From Candidatus Falkowbacteria bacterium (GTDB lineage: Bacteria; Patescibacteriota; Patescibacteriia; CAIXNZ01), in the NCBI GenBank assembly GCA_963774955.1, contig CAVZGV010000003.1, positions 128,771-192,770 of the forward strand: 64,000 nt of DNA, written 5' to 3'. The notes below the pieces were generated by a model. That model worked only from the letters and a program-made list of their open reading frames with translations. It ran no database searches and was not told the DNA's origin. A program made the position numbers and the translations under genes. Below are positions 4,941 through 11,561 of this stretch, piece by piece; the first letter of the stretch is position 1, and every line of letters begins with the position of its first letter.

Positions 4941-5013
4941 GGGCCTCTTCGTCTAGTGGCTAGGACGCATGGTTCTCATCCATGTAACAGGGGTTCGATT
5001 CCCCTAGGGGCTA
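4941..5013 (+). tRNA. tRNA-Glu (anticodon CUC)
   Basis: Hand-folded cloverleaf: acceptor GGCCTCT/AGGGGCT (2 G-U pairs), D arm GTC-TAGTGGCTAG-GAC, anticodon arm CATGG-TTCTCAT-CCATG, T arm AGGGG-TTCGATT-CCCCT. Aligns to E. coli tRNA-Glu. Confidence 0.75.
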
Positions 5014-5027
5014 TTATAAAAAGTTCT

Positions 5028-5094
5028 TCCGCCATAGGCGGACCCGCCTCTGGCGGGCATCCTGGTAATAGGGGTTCGATTCCCCTTGGCGGTA
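5028..5094 (+). ncRNA. degenerate tRNA-like element (tRNA 3'-half copy fused to a double GC hairpin)
   Basis: T arm identical to tRNA-Glu (AGGGGTTCGATTCCCCT). Acceptor-like pairing TCCGCCA/TGGCGGT. Only about 67 nt, with the D and anticodon arms replaced by two 6-bp hairpins (TCCGCC-ATA-GGCGGA, CCCGCC-TCT-GGCGGG). Confidence 0.3.
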
Positions 5095-5146
5095 TTAGCA
5101 ATATTTACTCTCAGACTCAAGGGTCTTTTTTTGTTTATTTGTAGCT

Positions 5147-5181
5147 TGACAAATGTGGTTTTTTTTGTTAAGTTTAGTTGA
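5147..5181 (+). promoter_or_regulatory. candidate sigma70-like promoter for the island operon (TTGACA-17-TAAGTT)
   Basis: TTGACA at 5147-5152 and a weak -10 after 17 nt. Followed by the nested hairpin at 5240-5270 and RBS AAGGGAGG. Confidence 0.3.
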
Positions 5182-5290
5182 TTCCCTGAAGAAGGGAAGA
5201 ATTTTGTTTTTTGATAAAAAAATAAGGATTTCAAAGACAACCCACCTACGCTCCTTTGGAGCTATGGTGGGTAAAAGGGAGGACAAGAAA

Positions 5291-5743
5291 ATGCCGTGTA
5301 ACATTGGTTATCGGGTGTATGCTCCGATCAAGATTCCGGCCCCAGTGCCCCAGGAATTCAAAAGCAGGACTGAGGCGCCGAAAATTGACGCTGAGCTTCT
5401 GGACAGATTAGGGGAATCAGATCCCGTATTCTGTGAGTGGCTCAAAGCCTTGGATATTAAACCTTTGCTGCAGCAGGCCCTGGAACGGGCTTTGACTAAA
5501 GTAAAAATTACCAAGACTCTGAAAGTTCAGATTTCTGATGCTGGCTATCTGGAGGCACAGGCCAGTTTTATTGGCGAGGCGCAAAAAGCCAAGCTGGAAA
5601 AATTGTCCGGCCAGGTCGCTTCCCAGTTTCAACTGGAAGTCATGAAAATGATTGCTGAGCTTTTGGACTATGAGACAGCCGTGACCGAAGATAAAAACGG
5701 CGGCTGGGTAATCGAAGGAGAAAAAAATGAGCAACGTTCATAA
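5291..5743 (+). CDS. hypothetical protein (island gene 1), helical
   Basis: Strong RBS AAAGGGAGG then ATG at 5291; the track ORF 5153..5743 extends upstream via an alternative start. Stop overlaps the next start (ATGA), indicating coupling. Confidence 0.5.
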   Translation: MPCNIGYRVYAPIKIPAPVPQEFKSRTEAPKIDAELLDRLGESDPVFCEWLKALDIKPLLQQALERALTKVKITKTLKVQISDAGYLEAQASFIGEAQKAKLEKLSGQVASQFQLEVMKMIAELLDYETAVTEDKNGGWVIEGEKNEQRS

Positions 5744-5960
5744 GTATCTGAAGATCAGCAAAAGTCCTGACGGGAAAGACGGCCTGGAATTTGAACATTT
5801 TGAAAGTCAGGAAGCTGCTGACCAGGAACAGGACAGGTTTGTTGCCTTGGCTCAGGCGCTGGGTCTGGAAATCAAAGTCAGCAAAGCCAGAAAAGGCGGA
5901 CAGCCGATTGCCGGCAATACAGTCCATAAGGATTTTCTACCCGGTCGCAATCGGACTTAA
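5727..5960 (+). CDS. hypothetical small protein (island gene 2)
   Basis: RBS GAAGGAG, 77 aa. Overlaps the upstream stop and sits 12 nt before the AAA gene. Confidence 0.45.
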   Translation: MSNVHKYLKISKSPDGKDGLEFEHFESQEAADQEQDRFVALAQALGLEIKVSKARKGGQPIAGNTVHKDFLPGRNRT

Positions 5961-5972
5961 GAGGAGAAGACA

Positions 5973-7928
5973 ATGACAGCGAAGAAAAAAGAAAGGTTTG
6001 AACCGGAGAATGCATTGCCGCTCGTGCCCATCTGGCTGAGCGAACAAATTATCTGTCCGTTTCAGTCGGGCATTGCCTCAGTTTTTCTGCTTCATGGCGA
6101 TATCGGAGGCCTGGTGGCTAATCCGGACAGGGAAGACGATCCGGATGAAGACAAATACATTACGCTGCCCGAATTTTTCCAGAGGATTTTTTCCGAAAGG
6201 GAAATGGTCATCTTCTATGACATCGCCAACGGTCTGCGCTTTTTGACGCCGGAAATGAAAAATATTTTCCGGCAAAAAGTCGGACTGGACAGCGCACCGA
6301 CAGGTTCTGCTGACGCAATTGCCGCGGCCAAAGCCCAGCTTAAGGCCAAACAGGCTCTGCCGCGTGATGTGGAAAGCTGCCTGCCCCTGATTGATAAGGT
6401 TTTGAAAACCATGAACAATGTGGCAGTCATTATCCAATCGGCTCATTTTATTGCGCCGACTTCAAGTGGTGTGGCCTTACCGCCTAACGAACGGGTTAAT
6501 ATTGAAACGCTGCGCAACTGGATTCAGTCTGCCAATATCAGGAAAAGTAAAAATGTGGTTTTGCTGCTGACTGACCAGTCGGCCAAAGTGAGCTCGGAAC
6601 TGCGGCAAAGCGGTTCGGAACTGATCACGGTTTTTATTCCCAAACCCAATTTTCAGGAACGGCTGGACTTTATCCAGTCAATCGCAGTCAACGCCGAGCA
6701 GGCGGAAGCTTTATTTAAGAGGCTGAGAGAGCACGAAAGCAAACTGAAAGGGCTGGGGCCGGCCTCATCCAAACGAGCTACTCTTGAATCTGAAGTTAAT
6801 GAGATTCAGGAAGCGCTCGATGAGCTCCCGATCGCCATCGATCTGCCCAAGGACTTTGATTCCAAATCCATGGCAGTGGCCACGCAAGGCATGAATCTGC
6901 GTCAGATCCGGGATATTTTCCTGGAAAGCTCCAAAAGCGGCAAAGCCATTGACCTGGATTATGTCCGCCGTAGAAAGCAGGATATTCTCAATAGCGAATA
7001 CGGGGATGTCATGGAAGTCGTGGAACCTAAACGCGGATTGGAAGACATCGGCGGCATGGAACACATCAAGGTTTATTTTTCTCGCGTGCTGTCAGCCATT
7101 CGCCAGGGTGAATCCCGGCTGGTACCTATGGGTATCACGCTGATGGGTCCGCCGGGTACTGGCAAAACAGCCTTGGTTGAAGCTCTGGCTTTTGAGGCCA
7201 AGTTCACTTTTGTTAAAACCAAAAGCATTCGTTCCATGTGGGTCGGCGAATCCGAAGCCCGTCAGGAAAAACTGATTTGGGGTTTGCGCGCTCTGGCGCC
7301 GGTCGTGGTCATGAATGACGAGGCTGATTTGAACGAAGCCAACCGCGACGCGCCCAAAGGCGATTCCGGAGTTTCCGAACGCCTGATGAAGATGTGGATG
7401 GAACTGCTGTCAGATCCGAAAATCCGTGGCCAGATCATTGTCATCAACTGCACCAACCGGCCTGACCGGATTGACGCGGCGCTCAAGCGCAGTGGACGCA
7501 GTGATGAAAGATTGCTTTTGCCCATGCCTTCACAGGCTGAGCGGGAAGCAATTTTTCAGGTGATGATCAAGCGGCATCAGATTCCGACCAGTTTGAAGGA
7601 GTTTTCGGGCTTTGCCCAAAGCACCTCTGACCTGTCCGGAGCTGATCTGGAAAACGTGGTCCTTCGCGCTTACAGCTTTGCAGCTGAAAAGGGTAAAAAG
7701 GTCATTGACGAAGAATGCCTGCAGGAGGCGATCAGGGATTTTATTCCCAGCGCCAGTCAGGAAGCGATTGACCGGATGACTTTGTACGGCTTGTCTGAAT
7801 GTTCTTCGCGCCGGCTTTTGCCTCCCAATGCCAAGGAAATCCTGATCAAGATCATGCAGCGTCGGCTGGTGCCTGAACAGGACGAAATCGTCGCGCTGAT
7901 CAAATCACGCAAGATCGTGGAGTTGTAA
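5973..7928 (+). CDS. two-domain classical AAA ATPase: degenerate N-terminal domain plus active CDC48/FtsH-clade domain
   Basis: Walker A GPPGTGKT, SxWVGESE, Walker B MNDEADL, second region of homology TNRPDRIDAALKRSGRSDERL. The N-terminal half has a P-loop-less relic VFLLHGDIGG. Confidence 0.85.
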   Translation: MTAKKKERFEPENALPLVPIWLSEQIICPFQSGIASVFLLHGDIGGLVANPDREDDPDEDKYITLPEFFQRIFSEREMVIFYDIANGLRFLTPEMKNIFRQKVGLDSAPTGSADAIAAAKAQLKAKQALPRDVESCLPLIDKVLKTMNNVAVIIQSAHFIAPTSSGVALPPNERVNIETLRNWIQSANIRKSKNVVLLLTDQSAKVSSELRQSGSELITVFIPKPNFQERLDFIQSIAVNAEQAEALFKRLREHESKLKGLGPASSKRATLESEVNEIQEALDELPIAIDLPKDFDSKSMAVATQGMNLRQIRDIFLESSKSGKAIDLDYVRRRKQDILNSEYGDVMEVVEPKRGLEDIGGMEHIKVYFSRVLSAIRQGESRLVPMGITLMGPPGTGKTALVEALAFEAKFTFVKTKSIRSMWVGESEARQEKLIWGLRALAPVVVMNDEADLNEANRDAPKGDSGVSERLMKMWMELLSDPKIRGQIIVINCTNRPDRIDAALKRSGRSDERLLLPMPSQAEREAIFQVMIKRHQIPTSLKEFSGFAQSTSDLSGADLENVVLRAYSFAAEKGKKVIDEECLQEAIRDFIPSASQEAIDRMTLYGLSECSSRRLLPPNAKEILIKIMQRRLVPEQDEIVALIKSRKIVEL

Positions 7929-7937
7929 AGGACGAAA

Positions 7938-7979
7938 GCCCCGCACCTCCCGCGTCGCGGGATGGTGCGGGGTTTTCTC
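7938..7979 (+). terminator. nested GC hairpin plus U-run between the AAA and vWA genes (attenuator or partial terminator)
   Basis: CCCCGCACC-[TCCCGCG T CGCGGGA]-GGTGCGGGG followed by TTTTCTC. Confidence 0.5.
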
Positions 7980-8010
7980 AGCATTAATCGGTAAACAAAG
8001 GAGGTAGAAA

Positions 8011-9030
8011 ATGGGTGGTCCTTCAGGTAAGTTTTATGACAGGGATGTGAGTGATAGAAGTAGCCGGACATCAAGCGGTACTTCTCAGGTTTCTGAAGAA
8101 GCCATGTCCCGCTCAAGAGTTGATGCCTCGCTTTTGCCCAAGGGACGGGAATTGGTCTGCAATGCCAAAAGTCCTTTGGTCTATGCTTTTGACGTAACCG
8201 GTTCAATGGGTAATTTGCCCAAGATCATTTATGACAAGATGCCCATGATTGCCGGACAGCTGGTGGAACAGGGTTATCTTGATGATCCCATGATCAGTAT
8301 TGCCGCTGTCGGCGACATCGAGTCGGATCTGGCACCTATTCAGATCGCGGATTTTTCTTTGATCCGCGCCCTGGATACCTGGCTGCAGAAGATCTGGCTG
8401 GAAGGCAATGGCGGCGGACAGGCCAAAGAATCTTATGAATTTACGGCCTATTTCTACGCCAGAATGTTCAAGATGCCCAAGGCAGTCACGCCATTTTTCC
8501 TCTTTACCGGAGACGAAGGTTTTCGGGAGGAATTGCTGGTCAATGACCTGAAAGCCCATTTTGGTGGAGAACATCAGAAAGTCAGCGCCTTTACCATTTT
8601 CGAGGAGCTCAAGAAGAAGTTCTTCGGCAATGTCTATCTGATCCATCGGAAATATGAGCGTTCGGAAAATGCCAGCATCGTCAGACAGTGGCAGGAAGCT
8701 CTGGGCAAAGAACGGGTGATTGATCTGCCCGAGGATCTGGCCATTGCCGATCTTACTCTGGGGCTTTTCGCAGTCACCGTCGGCGGTCGTACCCTGAAAG
8801 ATTACCTCAAGGAAATGAAGGAGAGGGAACAGACCGAAGACCGTATCAAGAAAGTCGGCAAGGCTCTGGAAGTCGTGGCCAGTCTGGCCAAGTCAAAGCC
8901 GGCTGACGCAGACGAGGAAAAAAATTCCGCGGCTGATGATGACGACGATAACAAGCCGACCAAGTCGGACAAACCAAAGCCGACTGATAAAAAGAAAAAA
9001 CCCGGCGGGAAAAAGCCCGGCCGGTTCTAA
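8011..9030 (+). CDS. von Willebrand factor A (vWA) domain protein with a charged low-complexity tail
   Basis: MIDAS motif in LVYAFDVTGSMGN (DxTGS). C-terminal D-rich then K/P-rich tail. RBS AAAGGAGG. Confidence 0.7.
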   Translation: MGGPSGKFYDRDVSDRSSRTSSGTSQVSEEAMSRSRVDASLLPKGRELVCNAKSPLVYAFDVTGSMGNLPKIIYDKMPMIAGQLVEQGYLDDPMISIAAVGDIESDLAPIQIADFSLIRALDTWLQKIWLEGNGGGQAKESYEFTAYFYARMFKMPKAVTPFFLFTGDEGFREELLVNDLKAHFGGEHQKVSAFTIFEELKKKFFGNVYLIHRKYERSENASIVRQWQEALGKERVIDLPEDLAIADLTLGLFAVTVGGRTLKDYLKEMKEREQTEDRIKKVGKALEVVASLAKSKPADADEEKNSAADDDDDNKPTKSDKPKPTDKKKKPGGKKPGRF

Positions 9031-9050
9031 GCTCTAAATTTTAGAGACTC

Positions 9051-9078
9051 AATCAGTTTGGGGCAACCCAAACTGATT
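9051..9078 (+). promoter_or_regulatory. perfect 12-bp stem with GCAA tetraloop in the vWA to PK-like intercistronic spacer
   Basis: AATCAGTTTGGG-GCAA-CCCAAACTGATT. Preceded by the small palindrome CTCTAAA-T-TTTAGAG. Confidence 0.45.
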
Positions 9079-9138
9079 CTACTCTGGAATTTATGGTAAT
9101 GAACATTGAAACTCAAAAAAATTAAGGAGGGAACAGAG

Positions 9139-10062
9139 ATGTCTAAGAGTGCCACGGTTAGAATCATGGCGACTTTAGCGCCTTATGTTGACCATCGGGC
9201 CGAAATCATCGGTCATCCTTTGGTTAAGGAATTGCGCCTGAATACGGTCATGCCCATTGCCGAGCCCAAACTGGAACTTCTGACTCGGCTCAAACATGAA
9301 TGCGGAAAAAAGAAGCTGTGGCTGGATCTGAAAACCAGGCAGCTGCGCATCACCAAATTCGCCTATCTGCCGTATGCCTATGTGGAACTCAGCCACAGAA
9401 TCAAGGTTGATCTGCCGGCCACGATCTACTTCAAAGATGGTACTGCCAAAATCGTGGAAATTTTCAACGGCAATAAGTTGATTTTGGCTGAACGGCCCAT
9501 GCGGGTTGTCGGCGAAGGCGAACCCGTCAATATTCTGGATCCGTCATTGCAGATTGAAGGTTTTTTAACTGACAATGATCGGGAATACGTAGCGGCGGCT
9601 AAAAAACTCGGATTGCATGATTACATGCTCTCATTCGTAGAAAGCGGTAATGATTTGCGGGAACTTTGGCAGCTTGATAATGAAGCCAAACCAATACTTA
9701 AGATCGAATCACTGCGCGGCTTGGATTTTTTGTCGAATTACCGTCAGGTTTTTCACACTAATATGCGCCTGATGGTTGCCCGTGATGATCTTTACATCAA
9801 CATGGGTGAGCAGAAAACAGATATGCTGCGCGCACTAGCCGCGATTATTAAAAATGATCCGCGGGCATATTGTGCCTCTCGGCTGCTGACTTCGTTGGAA
9901 GAAAAGGATGAAGTCGCCTTGCAGGATCTGTCTGATTTGCAGCTGATGCTGCTGTCCGGCTACCGGAGGTTTTTGCTGAGCGACATGCTGTGCTTTCACC
10001 ACGCGTCTTTTACCAAAACCATGGCCGTGCTCAGTGAATTTTTTCCGGGCGGGAGGTTCTAA
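9139..10062 (+). CDS. pyruvate-kinase-like TIM-barrel domain protein (PK/HpcH/PEP-utilizing superfamily) lacking PK C-domain
   Basis: KIESLRGLD...MVARDDLYINMGEQK resembles PK (S)KIENQEG...MVARGDLG. Start taken at the ATG after RBS AAGGAGGG; the track ORF starts 33 nt earlier. Confidence 0.5.
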   Translation: MSKSATVRIMATLAPYVDHRAEIIGHPLVKELRLNTVMPIAEPKLELLTRLKHECGKKKLWLDLKTRQLRITKFAYLPYAYVELSHRIKVDLPATIYFKDGTAKIVEIFNGNKLILAERPMRVVGEGEPVNILDPSLQIEGFLTDNDREYVAAAKKLGLHDYMLSFVESGNDLRELWQLDNEAKPILKIESLRGLDFLSNYRQVFHTNMRLMVARDDLYINMGEQKTDMLRALAAIIKNDPRAYCASRLLTSLEEKDEVALQDLSDLQLMLLSGYRRFLLSDMLCFHHASFTKTMAVLSEFFPGGRF

Positions 10063-11507
10063 TGCCCAAGAGTAAAGTTTTCATTGTTACGGATTTGGGC
10101 CTCGGTGACGCCGGTAAAGGTACTATCGTAGATTATCTGGCCCGGCATCATCCGGTTAAATCAGTAATCAGATTCAATGGCGGTCCGCAGGCAGCCCACT
10201 GTGTGGTCACTGCTGACGGCCGTCACCATGTCTTTGCTCAGTTTGGTTCCGGTTCTTTTTCCGGCGGGGTGGAAACTTTCTTGTCTGGCCAGATGCTGGT
10301 GGAACTGGAAAATCTGATGGTTGAAAATGAATACCTGATTGGGGCAGGCATTAAGGACGGCTTTGAACGTTTAACGGTTGATCCGTCTGCCTGTCTGGTT
10401 ACGCCGGCTCATAAAATGCTCGGTCAGCTCAAAGAAATCAAGCGCGGCTCAAAGCGCCTTGGTTCCTGCGGTATGGGCGTCGGCGAGGCTGCCAAGGATC
10501 GGGCTGATAAGTCTGCGATTACTGTCGCTGACTGTCTTGATAAAGCCGGTTTGAAAATAAAACTGGCCAGGCAATTTGAAACAAAGTTCCGTCAGGTACA
10601 GCCCCTGATGAAAGGCAATCGTTCAGCCAAGGCAGGCAAGCTTTATCACTATTTCCAAGAGCGCTTGAACCCTGTTGAGCTGGCTGAGATTTACCACGGG
10701 ATAGTTAGCCGTCTGCGCTTGGCGCCCTCGGCAAAATACCTGAGCCCCGGACAATTAAACGGCGCAAACCTGATTTTCGAAGGTGCCCAGGGTGTCCTGC
10801 TTGATCATGAATATGGCTTTTATCCCTATGTGACCAAAACCCGTTCGACCGGTCAGAATGCTTTGGCTTTATTGCAGTCAGCAGTCGACAGCATTGAGCT
10901 TGAAAAGTATTTTGAGATCAGTCGGGTCGGGGTGATCAGGGCTTATGGCCATCGGCACGGTGCTGGGCCGTTTGTCAGTGAAAGTCCCAGGCTGAGAAAA
11001 TACTTTCAGGATAAATTCAATCTGACCAATTCCTGGCAGGGAAAATTCCGGGTCGGCTGGCTGGATATGATTACTCTCAATTACGGTCTGTTCATCAACG
11101 GGGGAGTTGATTATCTGGCTTTAACCAATCTGGATCAGCTGAGCGGTTTGGCCAGGATCAAGGTCTGCGTGGCCTATAGCTACCAGGGCGATTTAAGTCA
11201 GCTGGATAAGTTCTTTATCTGGAAGAAAACCGGAGAAAATCAGGCCATAATCTATGCCATCAAAAAAGCTGATCCGCTTTTGATTGGCACTGGTCAATTG
11301 GCTGAACTGCTCCTCAGGTGTAAGCTGGGTAAGTGGCTGGAATTTCCAGGCTGGCAGCAGGATATTTCCCGGGTGAAAAAGCTGGCTGATCTGCCGCGCC
11401 AGGCTAGGGGATTTCTGACTTATCTGCAGAATCCGACGGCTTTGTATAAGCCGATCAAAATCATTTCAGTCAATGCGACTGAAGAAGGGAAAATATGGAT
11501 CGACTAA
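10062..11507 (+). CDS. divergent adenylosuccinate synthetase (PurA/PurZ-like) homolog
   Basis: P-loop GDAGKGT (PurA GDEGKGK), FEGAQGVLLD (FEGAQGTLLD), GAGPF, GWLD. GGHNAGH is changed to GGPQAAH, and TTGRRRR to NSWQGKFR. Start overlaps the upstream stop (TAATG). Confidence 0.75.
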   Translation: MPKSKVFIVTDLGLGDAGKGTIVDYLARHHPVKSVIRFNGGPQAAHCVVTADGRHHVFAQFGSGSFSGGVETFLSGQMLVELENLMVENEYLIGAGIKDGFERLTVDPSACLVTPAHKMLGQLKEIKRGSKRLGSCGMGVGEAAKDRADKSAITVADCLDKAGLKIKLARQFETKFRQVQPLMKGNRSAKAGKLYHYFQERLNPVELAEIYHGIVSRLRLAPSAKYLSPGQLNGANLIFEGAQGVLLDHEYGFYPYVTKTRSTGQNALALLQSAVDSIELEKYFEISRVGVIRAYGHRHGAGPFVSESPRLRKYFQDKFNLTNSWQGKFRVGWLDMITLNYGLFINGGVDYLALTNLDQLSGLARIKVCVAYSYQGDLSQLDKFFIWKKTGENQAIIYAIKKADPLLIGTGQLAELLLRCKLGKWLEFPGWQQDISRVKKLADLPRQARGFLTYLQNPTALYKPIKIISVNATEEGKIWID

Positions 11508-11533
11508 GCTCCGCTATGCGGAGCTTTTTATTT
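11506..11533 (+). terminator. rho-independent terminator closing the island operon
   Basis: AAGCTCCGC-TAT-GCGGAGCTT followed by TTTTATTTT. Confidence 0.65.
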
Positions 11534-11561
11534 TGGGGAGAAATTTTTGTCCCCAGGTTAT

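Follow-up and report, generated by a model that had tools for sequence, protein, structure and literature searches.

A Cdc48-like AAA ATPase and a divergent vWA-like protein in a candidate nucleotide-modifying gene cassette of Candidatus Falkowbacteria

Introduction

Pairs of an AAA+ motor and a von Willebrand factor A (vWA) protein act as remodelling or cofactor-insertion machines, and nearly all of those characterised use MoxR-type motors. A stretch of 64,000 nucleotides from Candidatus Falkowbacteria bacterium (contig CAVZGV010000003.1, positions 128,771 to 192,770 of the forward strand; hereafter the window, with all positions counted from its first letter) encodes what a first-pass annotation read as such a pair, namely an AAA ATPase with a degenerate first domain, followed by a protein with a vWA fold and a metal-ion-dependent adhesion site (MIDAS). 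What kind of machine do these two proteins form, and on what might it act? We find that both genes are real and linked, but that they are only part of a five-gene cassette, in which the most constant neighbour of the vWA-like gene encodes a relative of adenylosuccinate synthetase (PurA). The conserved core consists of the vWA-like protein and a nucleotide-modifying enzyme, nearly always from a distinct PurA-like clade, whereas the ATPase and the gene that precedes it (gene A) form an accessory module confined to a single sub-clade.

Results

A nucleotide-modifying enzyme is the constant partner of the vWA-like protein

The cassette comprises gene A and a tandem AAA gene, a putative terminator, and then the genes for the vWA-like protein, a minimal pyruvate-kinase-like (PK-like) protein and the PurA-like protein, all on the plus strand:

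5291–5743, plus strand: gene A, N-terminal part, 150 aa; starts MPCNIGY and is homologous to the first two thirds of the single gene A of relatives
5727–5960, plus strand: gene A, C-terminal part, 77 aa; corresponds to the last third of relatives' gene A, FEHF and G.PI...H.H included
5973–7928, plus strand: AAA ATPase, tandem, classical clade, 651 aa
7931–7979, plus strand: nested GC hairpin between the AAA and vWA-like genes, with core stem 7938–7972 and TTTT at 7973–7976
8011–9030, plus strand: vWA-like protein, 339 aa; vWA by structure
9139–10062, plus strand: pyruvate-kinase-barrel-like protein, 307 aa from ATG 9139; the open reading frame (ORF) opens at TTG 9106
10062–11507, plus strand: PurA-like protein of the 'WQG' clade, 481 aa

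We compared the window proteins with 112 fetched loci by tBLASTn, complemented by gene calls, and defined as the close clade those loci with a vWA identity above 45%. In this clade, which includes Patescibacteria, Planctomycetota, Myxococcota, Gammaproteobacteria and Acidobacteriota, about 29 of 30 informative loci show linkage of gene A with the AAA, vWA-like, PK-like and PurA-like genes, and the genes are still linked where their order is permuted (L018, L021 and L026). The AAA gene, present in 29 of these roughly 30 loci, occurs in none of the distant clade, whose bacterial members (for example Leptospira, Nannocystis relatives, Polyangiaceae and Uabimicrobium) also lack gene A and carry the PurA-like gene directly 3' of the vWA-like gene.

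The same arrangement, with the PurA-like gene immediately 3' of the vWA-like gene, is found in Mycobacterium phage Tonenili, Vibrio phage Va1 and Rhizobium phage RHph_Y65, and the two genes are adjacent in most bacterial loci and in 29 of 30 IMG/VR contigs, the exception among the latter being truncated. The linkage reaches Bixzunavirus mycobacteriophages, large Vibrio and Rhizobium phages and megaphage contigs, and the phage copies lie among genes of nucleotide metabolism (NrdD/G, PRTase, NMNAT and PNK). In addition, about half of the viral loci (15) encode, just upstream and in the place of the AAA, a protein that combines a J domain (HPD motif) with a Ser/Thr kinase (L001 3706–4779, L108 3135–4181 and 13 other IMG/VR loci); in Tonenili this is gp106, which matches Pkinase at E 8.5e-9 and DnaJ at E 1e-3. 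This recalls the TerY-P triad, which Anantharaman et al. 2012 are said to have described as a vWA protein with a Ser/Thr kinase and a PP2C phosphatase, in that a Ser/Thr kinase gene stands directly before the vWA-like gene of the phages. It differs from the triad in the J domain of its kinase, in the lack of an observed PP2C and in its third partner, which is PurA-like; the window itself has an AAA protein instead of a kinase.

Finally, two Asgard metagenome-assembled genomes (MAGs; L045 9001–15022 and L047 2115–8412) encode a vWA-like protein with a C-terminal zinc ribbon, followed by ThyA-like, QueC-like and PK-like proteins and then an alkaline phosphatase, with the ThyA-like and QueC-like pair standing in place of the PurA-like protein. 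Because of this bacterial, phage and Asgard synteny, we regard a nucleotide-modifying enzyme, and not the AAA ATPase, as the constant partner of the vWA-like protein.

The spread across phyla is patchy, at 50–65% identity, and the neighbours of the cassette vary, including STAND-like, kinase, reverse transcriptase and transposase genes. The vWA-like gene of Nannocystis punicea has a gene for a reverse transcriptase just upstream. A Nealsonbacteria cassette (L007 8952–13808) is interrupted between the vWA-like and PK-like genes by an insert with a Y1 (IS200/IS605-type) transposase, an 809-aa CN_hydrolase/NAD-synthase/NMNAT-like fusion and two unknown genes. In three IMG/VR contigs (L104 12041–13486 and two others), the vWA-like and PurA-like genes are followed, about 3 kb downstream, by a gene for a Ro60/TROVE-like protein that has a vWA motif of its own.

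The PurA-like enzymes share a catalytic core with PurA but differ at the substrate-binding motifs

The PurA-like protein matches the Pfam Adenylsucc_synt model at E 5.8e-75, yet its scores of 199 and 214 bits fall short of the 396 and 402 that the purA models (TIGR00184 and NF002223) require, and it reaches 65 bits against the 300-bit cut-off for phage PurZ (NF038379). We aligned about 80 vWA-linked homologues to E. coli PurA, using a reference sequence that is consistent with PDB alignments. The clade has the fold of PurA and PurZ and their GTP-type catalytic core: the P-loop GDxGKG (GDAGKG in the window), the equivalent of His41, FEGAQG with Gln224 and a GWLD-type motif are kept throughout, and the Asp333 equivalent usually so (xLD in the window). 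Unlike in canonical PurA, Asn38 is replaced by Gln and Lys331 is lost, GTTGRGIGP has become G-S-C-G-x-G-x-G (GSCGMGVG in the window), and GATTGRRRR has become N..[WF]-Q-G..-R with a one-residue deletion (NSWQGKF-R in the window; rarely, another residue precedes Q-G).

In E. coli PurA, the work of Honzatko and Fromm reportedly assigned Thr300, Thr301 and Arg303 to the recognition of L-aspartate, and Thr128 and Thr129 to the IMP phosphate. In every vWA-linked PurA-like protein, phages included, other residues stand in place of both the TTGR that binds aspartate and the TT that binds the IMP phosphate; locus L077 is the sole exception. We infer from the alignment that the phosphoryl-transfer chemistry has probably been retained while the second substrate has changed. 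In one Myxococcales MAG (L004 10362–14723), the PurA-like protein continues into a long fused C-terminal region that includes a Big_5 (bacterial Ig-like) domain, giving 1,453 aa in total.

The PK-like protein matches the PF00224 barrel at E 3.3e-8 (33.4 bits against a 30-bit cut-off) and is a minimal TIM barrel that lacks the C-terminal regulatory domain, scoring 31–41 bits against NCBIfam cut-offs of 306–432. In the alignment it keeps K-I-E and A-R-D-D-L, corresponding to K240, E242 and D266 of yeast pyruvate kinase, the catalytic Lys and the metal ligands. A marginal PADLOC match to PDC-M11A (E 0.0028, 14.7 bits) is not evidence of membership. A ribosome-binding site, AAGGAGG, precedes the ATG at 9139, and the stop codon of the PK-like gene overlaps the start of the PurA-like gene (TAATG), with 4-nt overlaps in L004, L005 and L007; these overlaps suggest that the expression of the two enzymes is coupled.

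The vWA-like protein belongs to a large, divergent family

The vWA-like protein has no match in Pfam, NCBIfam or PADLOC and nothing above noise in PDB sequence and profile searches, and matches only phrog_2971, whose function is unknown; across a 36-member family alignment, the vWA models of Pfam match no member even at E<=10. Its AlphaFold2 model, however, has a vWA topology between disordered N- and C-termini (predicted local distance difference test, pLDDT, 85), and Foldseek matches it to the integrin beta I-like domain, ITIH1 and vWF A1/A3 in the PDB (E ~1e-5, probability 1.0) and, in BFVD, almost entirely to structures annotated VWFA. The predicted structure is thus that of a vWA fold. 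The alignment and model place an invariant D61-x-T63-G64-S65 after beta1 and T166-x-D168-E169 after beta4 with the spacing of a canonical MIDAS, and between these two motifs lies an invariant loop, G134-G135 ... E140-x-Y142, before alpha3. The landmarks of the gene, assigned by alignment and model, are as follows:

8011–8046, plus strand: MGG...YDRD
8191–8205, plus strand: DVTGS
8410–8439, plus strand: GGGQ..ESYE loop
8506–8517, plus strand: TGDE
8914–9027, plus strand: disordered basic tail, ending KKPGRF

A profile search of 1.84 billion representatives returned 1,710 matches at E<=1e-3 and 1,312 at E<=1e-10. The family N-terminus reads MGG..[YF]YDRD, with the MGG start in 97 of the 149 best representatives, and the tail is disordered and rich in Lys and Pro, ending K-K-[PKR]-G-R-[ILVF](F) or [DSG]-W-K-L.

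The window protein carries DVTGSM at aa 61–66 and ends in DDDDDNKPTKSDKPKPTDKKKKPGGKKPGRF, a tail that had been likened to the acidic-proline linker of BchD. This analogy fails on both position and composition, since the tail is basic and lies C-terminal to the vWA domain; its poly-Asp run is unique to the window protein, and the tail varies across the 36 homologues. Several roles for the termini were considered and set aside. Docking of the basic tail, with its G-R-[ILF] or W-K-L end, specifically to the AAA ATPase was rejected, as similar ends occur in relatives without an AAA gene. The notion that the invariant N-terminal Gly is an amine substrate of the PurA-like enzyme is weakened by the retention of MGG in Asgard and Nannocystis proteins without a PurA-like neighbour. 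The C-terminal likeness between PGGRF of the PK-like protein and KKPGRF of the vWA-like protein is seen in the window and is not conserved. In Leptospira (L053 8995–10467) and Nannocystis (L076 9001–10512), the vWA-like protein contains an insert of about 150 aa inside the domain (…IWNNRNDLDLHI.PPSGE…GGWLDVDMN…).

The accessory ATPase is a classical-clade AAA with a degenerate first module

The AAA and vWA-like proteins each have full-length homologues at 50–88% identity, hundreds in number, and the two ORFs are therefore not chance. The ATPase matches Pfam AAA (PF00004) at E 1.9e-25 over aa 389–517 (cut-off 21 bits), along with an AAA lid. Its organisation is as follows:

6030–7007, plus strand: D1, degenerate module, aa ~20–345, with the relic VFLLHGDIGG at 6081–6110 (aa 37–46)
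7008–7742, plus strand: D2, active module, aa ~346–590, with GPPGTGKT at aa 392–399
7146–7169, plus strand: Walker A of D2
7236–7247, plus strand: pore loop MWVG of D2
7317–7322, plus strand: Walker B DE of D2
7452–7511, plus strand: second region of homology of D2, with R506 and R509
7743–7925, plus strand: helical C-terminal extension, from the AlphaFold2 model

Across 34 aligned family members (homologues 50–88% identical), from which the D2 motifs were assigned, Walker A (G392–K398), Walker B (D449 and E450), sensor 1 (T494 and N495) and, in the second region of homology, R496, R499, R506 and R509 are invariant. So are M422, W423 and G425 of pore loop 1, with V424 nearly so, which gives the aromatic-hydrophobic-Gly pattern that marks a substrate-threading unfoldase. 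The first-pass assignment of a classical ATPase with GPPGTGKT, the second region of homology and arginine fingers is thereby borne out, and its motif strings VFLLHGDIGG, GPPGTGKT and, in the vWA-like protein, DVTGSM are all in place.

Its further proposal of a degenerate first domain is also supported. The AlphaFold2 model (pLDDT 87; predicted template modelling score 0.82) contains a second alpha/beta-plus-helical module at aa 20–345, and Foldseek aligns the whole chain to the D1-D2 of Cdc48/p97 over 590–670 columns (E 5e-22; TM score 0.54 normalised to the query and <=0.58 to the target). Alignment of the D1 and D2 columns with hhalign gives E 1.1e-4, in register over beta4, sensor-1, the second region of homology, beta5 and the lid, pairing VVLLLTDQSAKVSSELRQSGSELITVFIPKPNFQERLDFI of D1 with IIVINCTNRPDRIDAALKRSGRSDERLLLPMPSQAEREAIF of D2 and aligning the lids too, and the order of strands and helices fits. 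Furthermore, one relative has an AAA-lid Pfam match at aa 267–304, just before D2. The D1 relic is conserved as F38..G42-D43 and not as a P-loop. Sequence and model together support the first half of the protein as a degenerate AAA module homologous to D2.

Within the classical clade, the best NCBIfam matches are FtsH, CDC48 and PAN, but because all are confined to the AAA core (aa ~345–590) and fall far under the family cut-offs, the ATPase belongs to none of these families. Like Cdc48, p97 and VAT, it has two stacked AAA modules, with Walker A and B, an aromatic pore loop, the second region of homology and two Arg in D2; unlike them, it lacks the N-terminal double-psi-barrel, its D1 reads LHGDIGG where Walker A has been lost, and the D1 lid contains a coiled-coil insert of about 60 aa; it reaches 108 bits against the 803-bit Cdc48 cut-off (TIGR01243), over aa 352–590 only. 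Against FtsH (TIGR01241) it scores 113 of the required 600 bits, in the AAA core only, and has no Peptidase_M41 match. D2 also resembles the IetA profiles of PADLOC (E 2e-17) and NCBIfam (53 bits), but only over the AAA core and far below the 510-bit cut-off, and there is no IetS protease. More generally, PADLOC-DB 2.0 contains no anti-phage system that is complete here; apart from the marginal PDC-M11A match of the PK-like protein, the only matches were of the AAA core, to IetA and TRIP13 models, and none of the vWA-like, PurA-like and gene A proteins had a match.

We also made the comparison with BchI/BchD, CoxD/E, NorQ/D and MoxR-vWA families that the first-pass annotation had called for, and found no kinship. 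The resemblance to RavA-ViaA, CbbQ-CbbO, NorQ-NorD, CoxD-CoxE, BchI-BchD and CobS-CobT lies in the arrangement, an AAA+ motor beside a vWA/MIDAS adaptor and tied to a specific enzyme, but here the motor is of the classical clade and the vWA-like protein is too divergent for the Pfam vWA models and usually occurs without an AAA. AAA_3, AAA_5 and Mg_chelatase models do not match the window ATPase, and among its relatives bpMoxR (E 0.07–0.13, thus around 0.1) and AAA_5 (E 0.006–0.02) matches are all below the cut-offs. Another possible parallel is CbxX, the red-type Rubisco activase, a classical-clade AAA with a single AAA module, which needs no vWA adaptor and acts by pulling on the C-terminal tail of its metabolic enzyme. 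Common to CbxX and the window are a classical AAA with a pore loop, encoded next to the genes of a metabolic enzyme module, and a disordered C-terminal tail that could be threaded; the window AAA differs in being tandem and in lying beside a vWA-like protein. The system would work like AAA+/vWA remodelling pairs yet falls outside the MoxR/BchI type, Cdc48, FtsH, IetAS, PurA and PurZ, and what is new beyond the AAA/vWA pairing may be the nucleotide chemistry.

Gene A and the transcriptional organisation of the cassette

Gene A has no recognisable domain, with no match in Pfam, NCBIfam or PADLOC and nothing but noise in PDB sequence and profile searches. Its 64 homologues occur only in this cassette, each as a single protein of about 225 aa (216–239 aa) encoded ahead of the AAA gene, which begins with an invariant MPC[DN][IL]G and also contains FEHF and, towards the C-terminus, G.PIP..H.H; in some relatives the tail is His-rich, as in HGHSHGHTHKHGHGHDHEH. 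In the window the gene is split into ORFs of 150 and 77 aa that overlap by 17 nt at GGAGAAAAAAATG (5714–5745, with an A7 run at 5721–5727), the junction reading GGA-GAA-AAA-AAT-G. We considered a sequencing error and rejected it, since the identical split and junction are present in an independent contig from another sample (L113, whose AAA is 88% identical), which argues that the split is real. A +1 slip on AAA-AAT would be predicted to restore the fused protein, and either such a slip or an internal restart at GGAG-N7-ATG could operate at the junction.

Between the AAA and vWA-like genes, the first-pass annotation had placed a nested GC hairpin with a U-run. It is present and very stable: RNAfold gives -40.4 kcal/mol against a shuffle mean of -19.2 (z -7.4), none of 200 shuffles was as stable, and a consensus scan lists it as terminator-like. 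Such elements recur at this junction in 12 Patescibacteria relatives, where a GC hairpin unrelated to that of the window opens the spacer and leads into a long T run, usually with TTGACA after it. These non-homologous elements at the same place argue for separate transcription units, [A-AAA] and [vWA-PK-PurA-like]. In the window, only 31 nt separate the hairpin from the vWA-like start at ATG 8011, including the ribosome-binding site GGAGG at 8000–8004, and the scan found no promoter-like site in them; since no promoter fits in this space, expression of the vWA-like, PK-like and PurA-like genes would here depend on read-through. In sample ERZ27247924, the metagenome assembly of the closest relative breaks exactly inside its own AAA-vWA hairpin. 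Two further elements were read downstream:

9049–9080, plus strand: perfect 12-bp hairpin between the vWA-like and PK-like genes, AATCAGTTTGGG GCAA CCCAAACTGATT, with no T run after it (read from the sequence)
11506–11535, plus strand: terminator at the cassette end, AAGCTCCGC TAT GCGGAGCTT, then TTTATTTT

The cassette as a putative island

Positions 5000–11499 have 46–55% GC against about 38% for the whole window, with an abrupt fall to 36% at 11500. On the 5' side lie tRNA-Glu (4942–5013) and the host-type genes PBP2 and MurF, and on the 3' side an ArsR/SdpI pair with its own consensus promoter; right after the cassette terminator, and upstream of the ArsR-family gene, 11562–11589 matches the sigma-70 consensus at 12 of 12 positions (TTGACA, 16 nt, TG, TATAAT). 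The only repeat near the island is of the tRNA-Glu 3' half (4977–5025; anticodon stem, T arm and acceptor 3' strand), duplicated at 5058–5106 with 80% identity, 81 nt downstream. Both copies lie on the same side of the island, just before its higher-GC part, and neither ARAGORN nor Rfam calls a tRNA at the second copy; the repeat may have been left behind by an integration event.

The foreign GC content, the cross-phylum identity of 50–65%, the variable neighbours and the presence in large phages together lead us to suggest that the distribution fits phage-host conflict, or nucleotide or nucleic-acid modification, and not housekeeping AMP synthesis.

Discussion

The explanation we prefer, which taken as a whole falls a little short of probable, is that ~5291–11526, with five or six genes, is a horizontally acquired cassette encoding a gated module that makes a non-canonical nucleotide, and that is not of the MoxR/BchD type. 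The PurA-like enzyme, which keeps the equivalents of the P-loop, Asp13, His41 and Gln224, would use GTP to phosphorylate the 6-oxo group of a purine nucleotide and, since W-Q-G has replaced the Thr300/Thr301/Arg303 motif, would couple the 6-phosphoryl intermediate to a nucleophile other than L-aspartate, yielding a non-canonical purine nucleotide. Its translationally coupled PK-like neighbour may regenerate GTP from GDP with phosphoenolpyruvate, or raise the product to the triphosphate. The vWA-like protein would serve as an adaptor or regulatory subunit that binds a partner through its MIDAS-like site, and an AAA hexamer with a dead D1, an active D2 and the pore loop M-W-V-G would engage the tail or the bound partner, remodel the complex and so switch the enzyme module on or off. 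The J-domain kinase that about half of the phage loci encode may play an equivalent gating role by recruiting host Hsp70. The hairpin would terminate most transcripts after the AAA gene, read-through setting the expression of the vWA-like, PK-like and PurA-like genes.

Several observations weigh against this explanation. Contact between the ATPase, the vWA-like and the PurA-like proteins is suggested by synteny only, and neither terminus of the vWA-like protein is specific to the AAA or the PurA-like protein, because the MGG start and the tail motif are both kept in relatives that lack one or the other. The MIDAS reading of the first-pass annotation holds for the modelled fold and for D61, T63, S65 and D168, invariant at the ends of beta1 and beta4, but the position of the MIDAS Thr falls in the GGGQ..E140-S141 loop and is not clearly filled. 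Loss of TTGR is no proof that the use of aspartate is lost, and L077, which bears the only canonical signature in the set, encodes a true PurA (Pfam E 6e-145), its gene lying upstream of those for a vWA-like and a PK-like protein. The T run after the hairpin is short (4 T), and in the nearest relative (end of L113 and start of L114, sample ERZ27247924) the visible 3' arm, CGCGTCGCGTGGTGCAGGGC, is related to that of the window and is followed by CTCAAC, without T's. The island edges have neither flanking direct repeats nor an integrase. In addition, a search of full-text literature, with subscription journals outside its coverage, found nothing relevant on the vWA-like/PurA-like pairing, on PurA homologues in defence or on AAA/vWA conflict systems, and neither a preprint on dZ and metaGPA nor a jumbo-phage review mentions the pair.

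Could the cassette instead serve ordinary purine salvage, the PurA-like enzyme making AMP and the PK-like enzyme regenerating nucleoside triphosphates for a reduced Patescibacteria genome or for phages, with the vWA-like protein as a scaffold and the AAA as a quality-control unfoldase? The retention of most catalytic motifs, the nucleotide-metabolism genes around the phage copies and the canonical PurA of L077, which fits ordinary AMP synthesis, all speak for it. We nonetheless consider it unlikely, given that the TTGR and IMP-phosphate TT motifs are replaced in every other vWA-linked member, that the scores reach only about half of the purA equivalog cut-offs (199–214 against 396–402 bits), that the cassette has no purB, that the Asgard loci exchange the PurA-like protein for ThyA-like and QueC-like proteins, and that the foreign GC content and patchy cross-phylum spread do not suit such a role.

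A metal-insertion or cofactor-assembly chaperone of the BchI/BchD, CobS/CobT, CoxD/CoxE or NorQ/NorD type, with gene A as the metal carrier and the PurA-like or PK-like enzyme as the client, would explain the pairing of an AAA with a vWA protein carrying MIDAS-like residues, and also the invariant Cys3, the conserved H.H and the His-rich tails of several gene A relatives, which are typical of metallochaperones. This seems quite unlikely for an ATPase of the classical and not the MoxR/BchI clade, beside a vWA-like family that mostly has neither AAA nor gene A and whose tail, basic and C-terminal, is unlike the BchD linker; moreover, the cassette contains no chelatase H/CobN-type or metalloenzyme client gene, and PurA and pyruvate kinase need only loosely bound Mg2+ and K+. 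Most improbable of the readings considered is that the AAA and vWA-like proteins are an autonomous unfolding pair of the Cdc48/Rpn10 kind, near the purine genes by coincidence, and that the hairpin, instead of being a terminator, is REP-like or stabilises mRNA. Tandem AAA proteins whose D1 is inactive and whose D2 is active do work as unfoldases on their own, and the short T run, the relative's hairpin without one and an overall count of terminator-like elements no higher than in shuffles (12 against 9.1) would all sit well with it, but the AAA gene is linked to the vWA-like, PK-like and PurA-like genes in about 29 loci of at least five phyla despite changes of order, and 12 relatives have, at the same junction, unrelated hairpins with long T runs, usually then TTGACA.

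Returning to the gated nucleotide module, we note a bolder and more doubtful extension of it. The vWA-like protein and the 'WQG' PurA-like enzyme might constitute an unrecognised, widespread two-gene module, of about 1,300 clusters at 50% identity, that makes an N6-substituted or otherwise 6-modified purine nucleotide with an amine other than aspartate. In phage-host conflict this nucleotide would be used as a weapon, as a signal or to modify nucleic acids, and the module would be gated by the Cdc48-like AAA and gene A in cells and by the J-domain kinase and host Hsp70 in phages. The hosts of the two-gene module are jumbo and large phages and many bacterial phyla, with a variant form in Asgard archaea.

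These results couple a Cdc48-like tandem AAA to an unannotated vWA family that is itself tightly linked to a PurA without its aspartate site, and they give more than 1,000 'hypothetical' phage and bacterial genes a testable context. Many phage annotations as 'adenylosuccinate synthetase' or in the style of PurZ (PHROG 1211) are probably wrong for this clade. If the PurA-like enzyme does make a new purine nucleotide, it would add a new branch to the story of PurA and PurZ, and could represent a new nucleotide-based mechanism of offence or defence.

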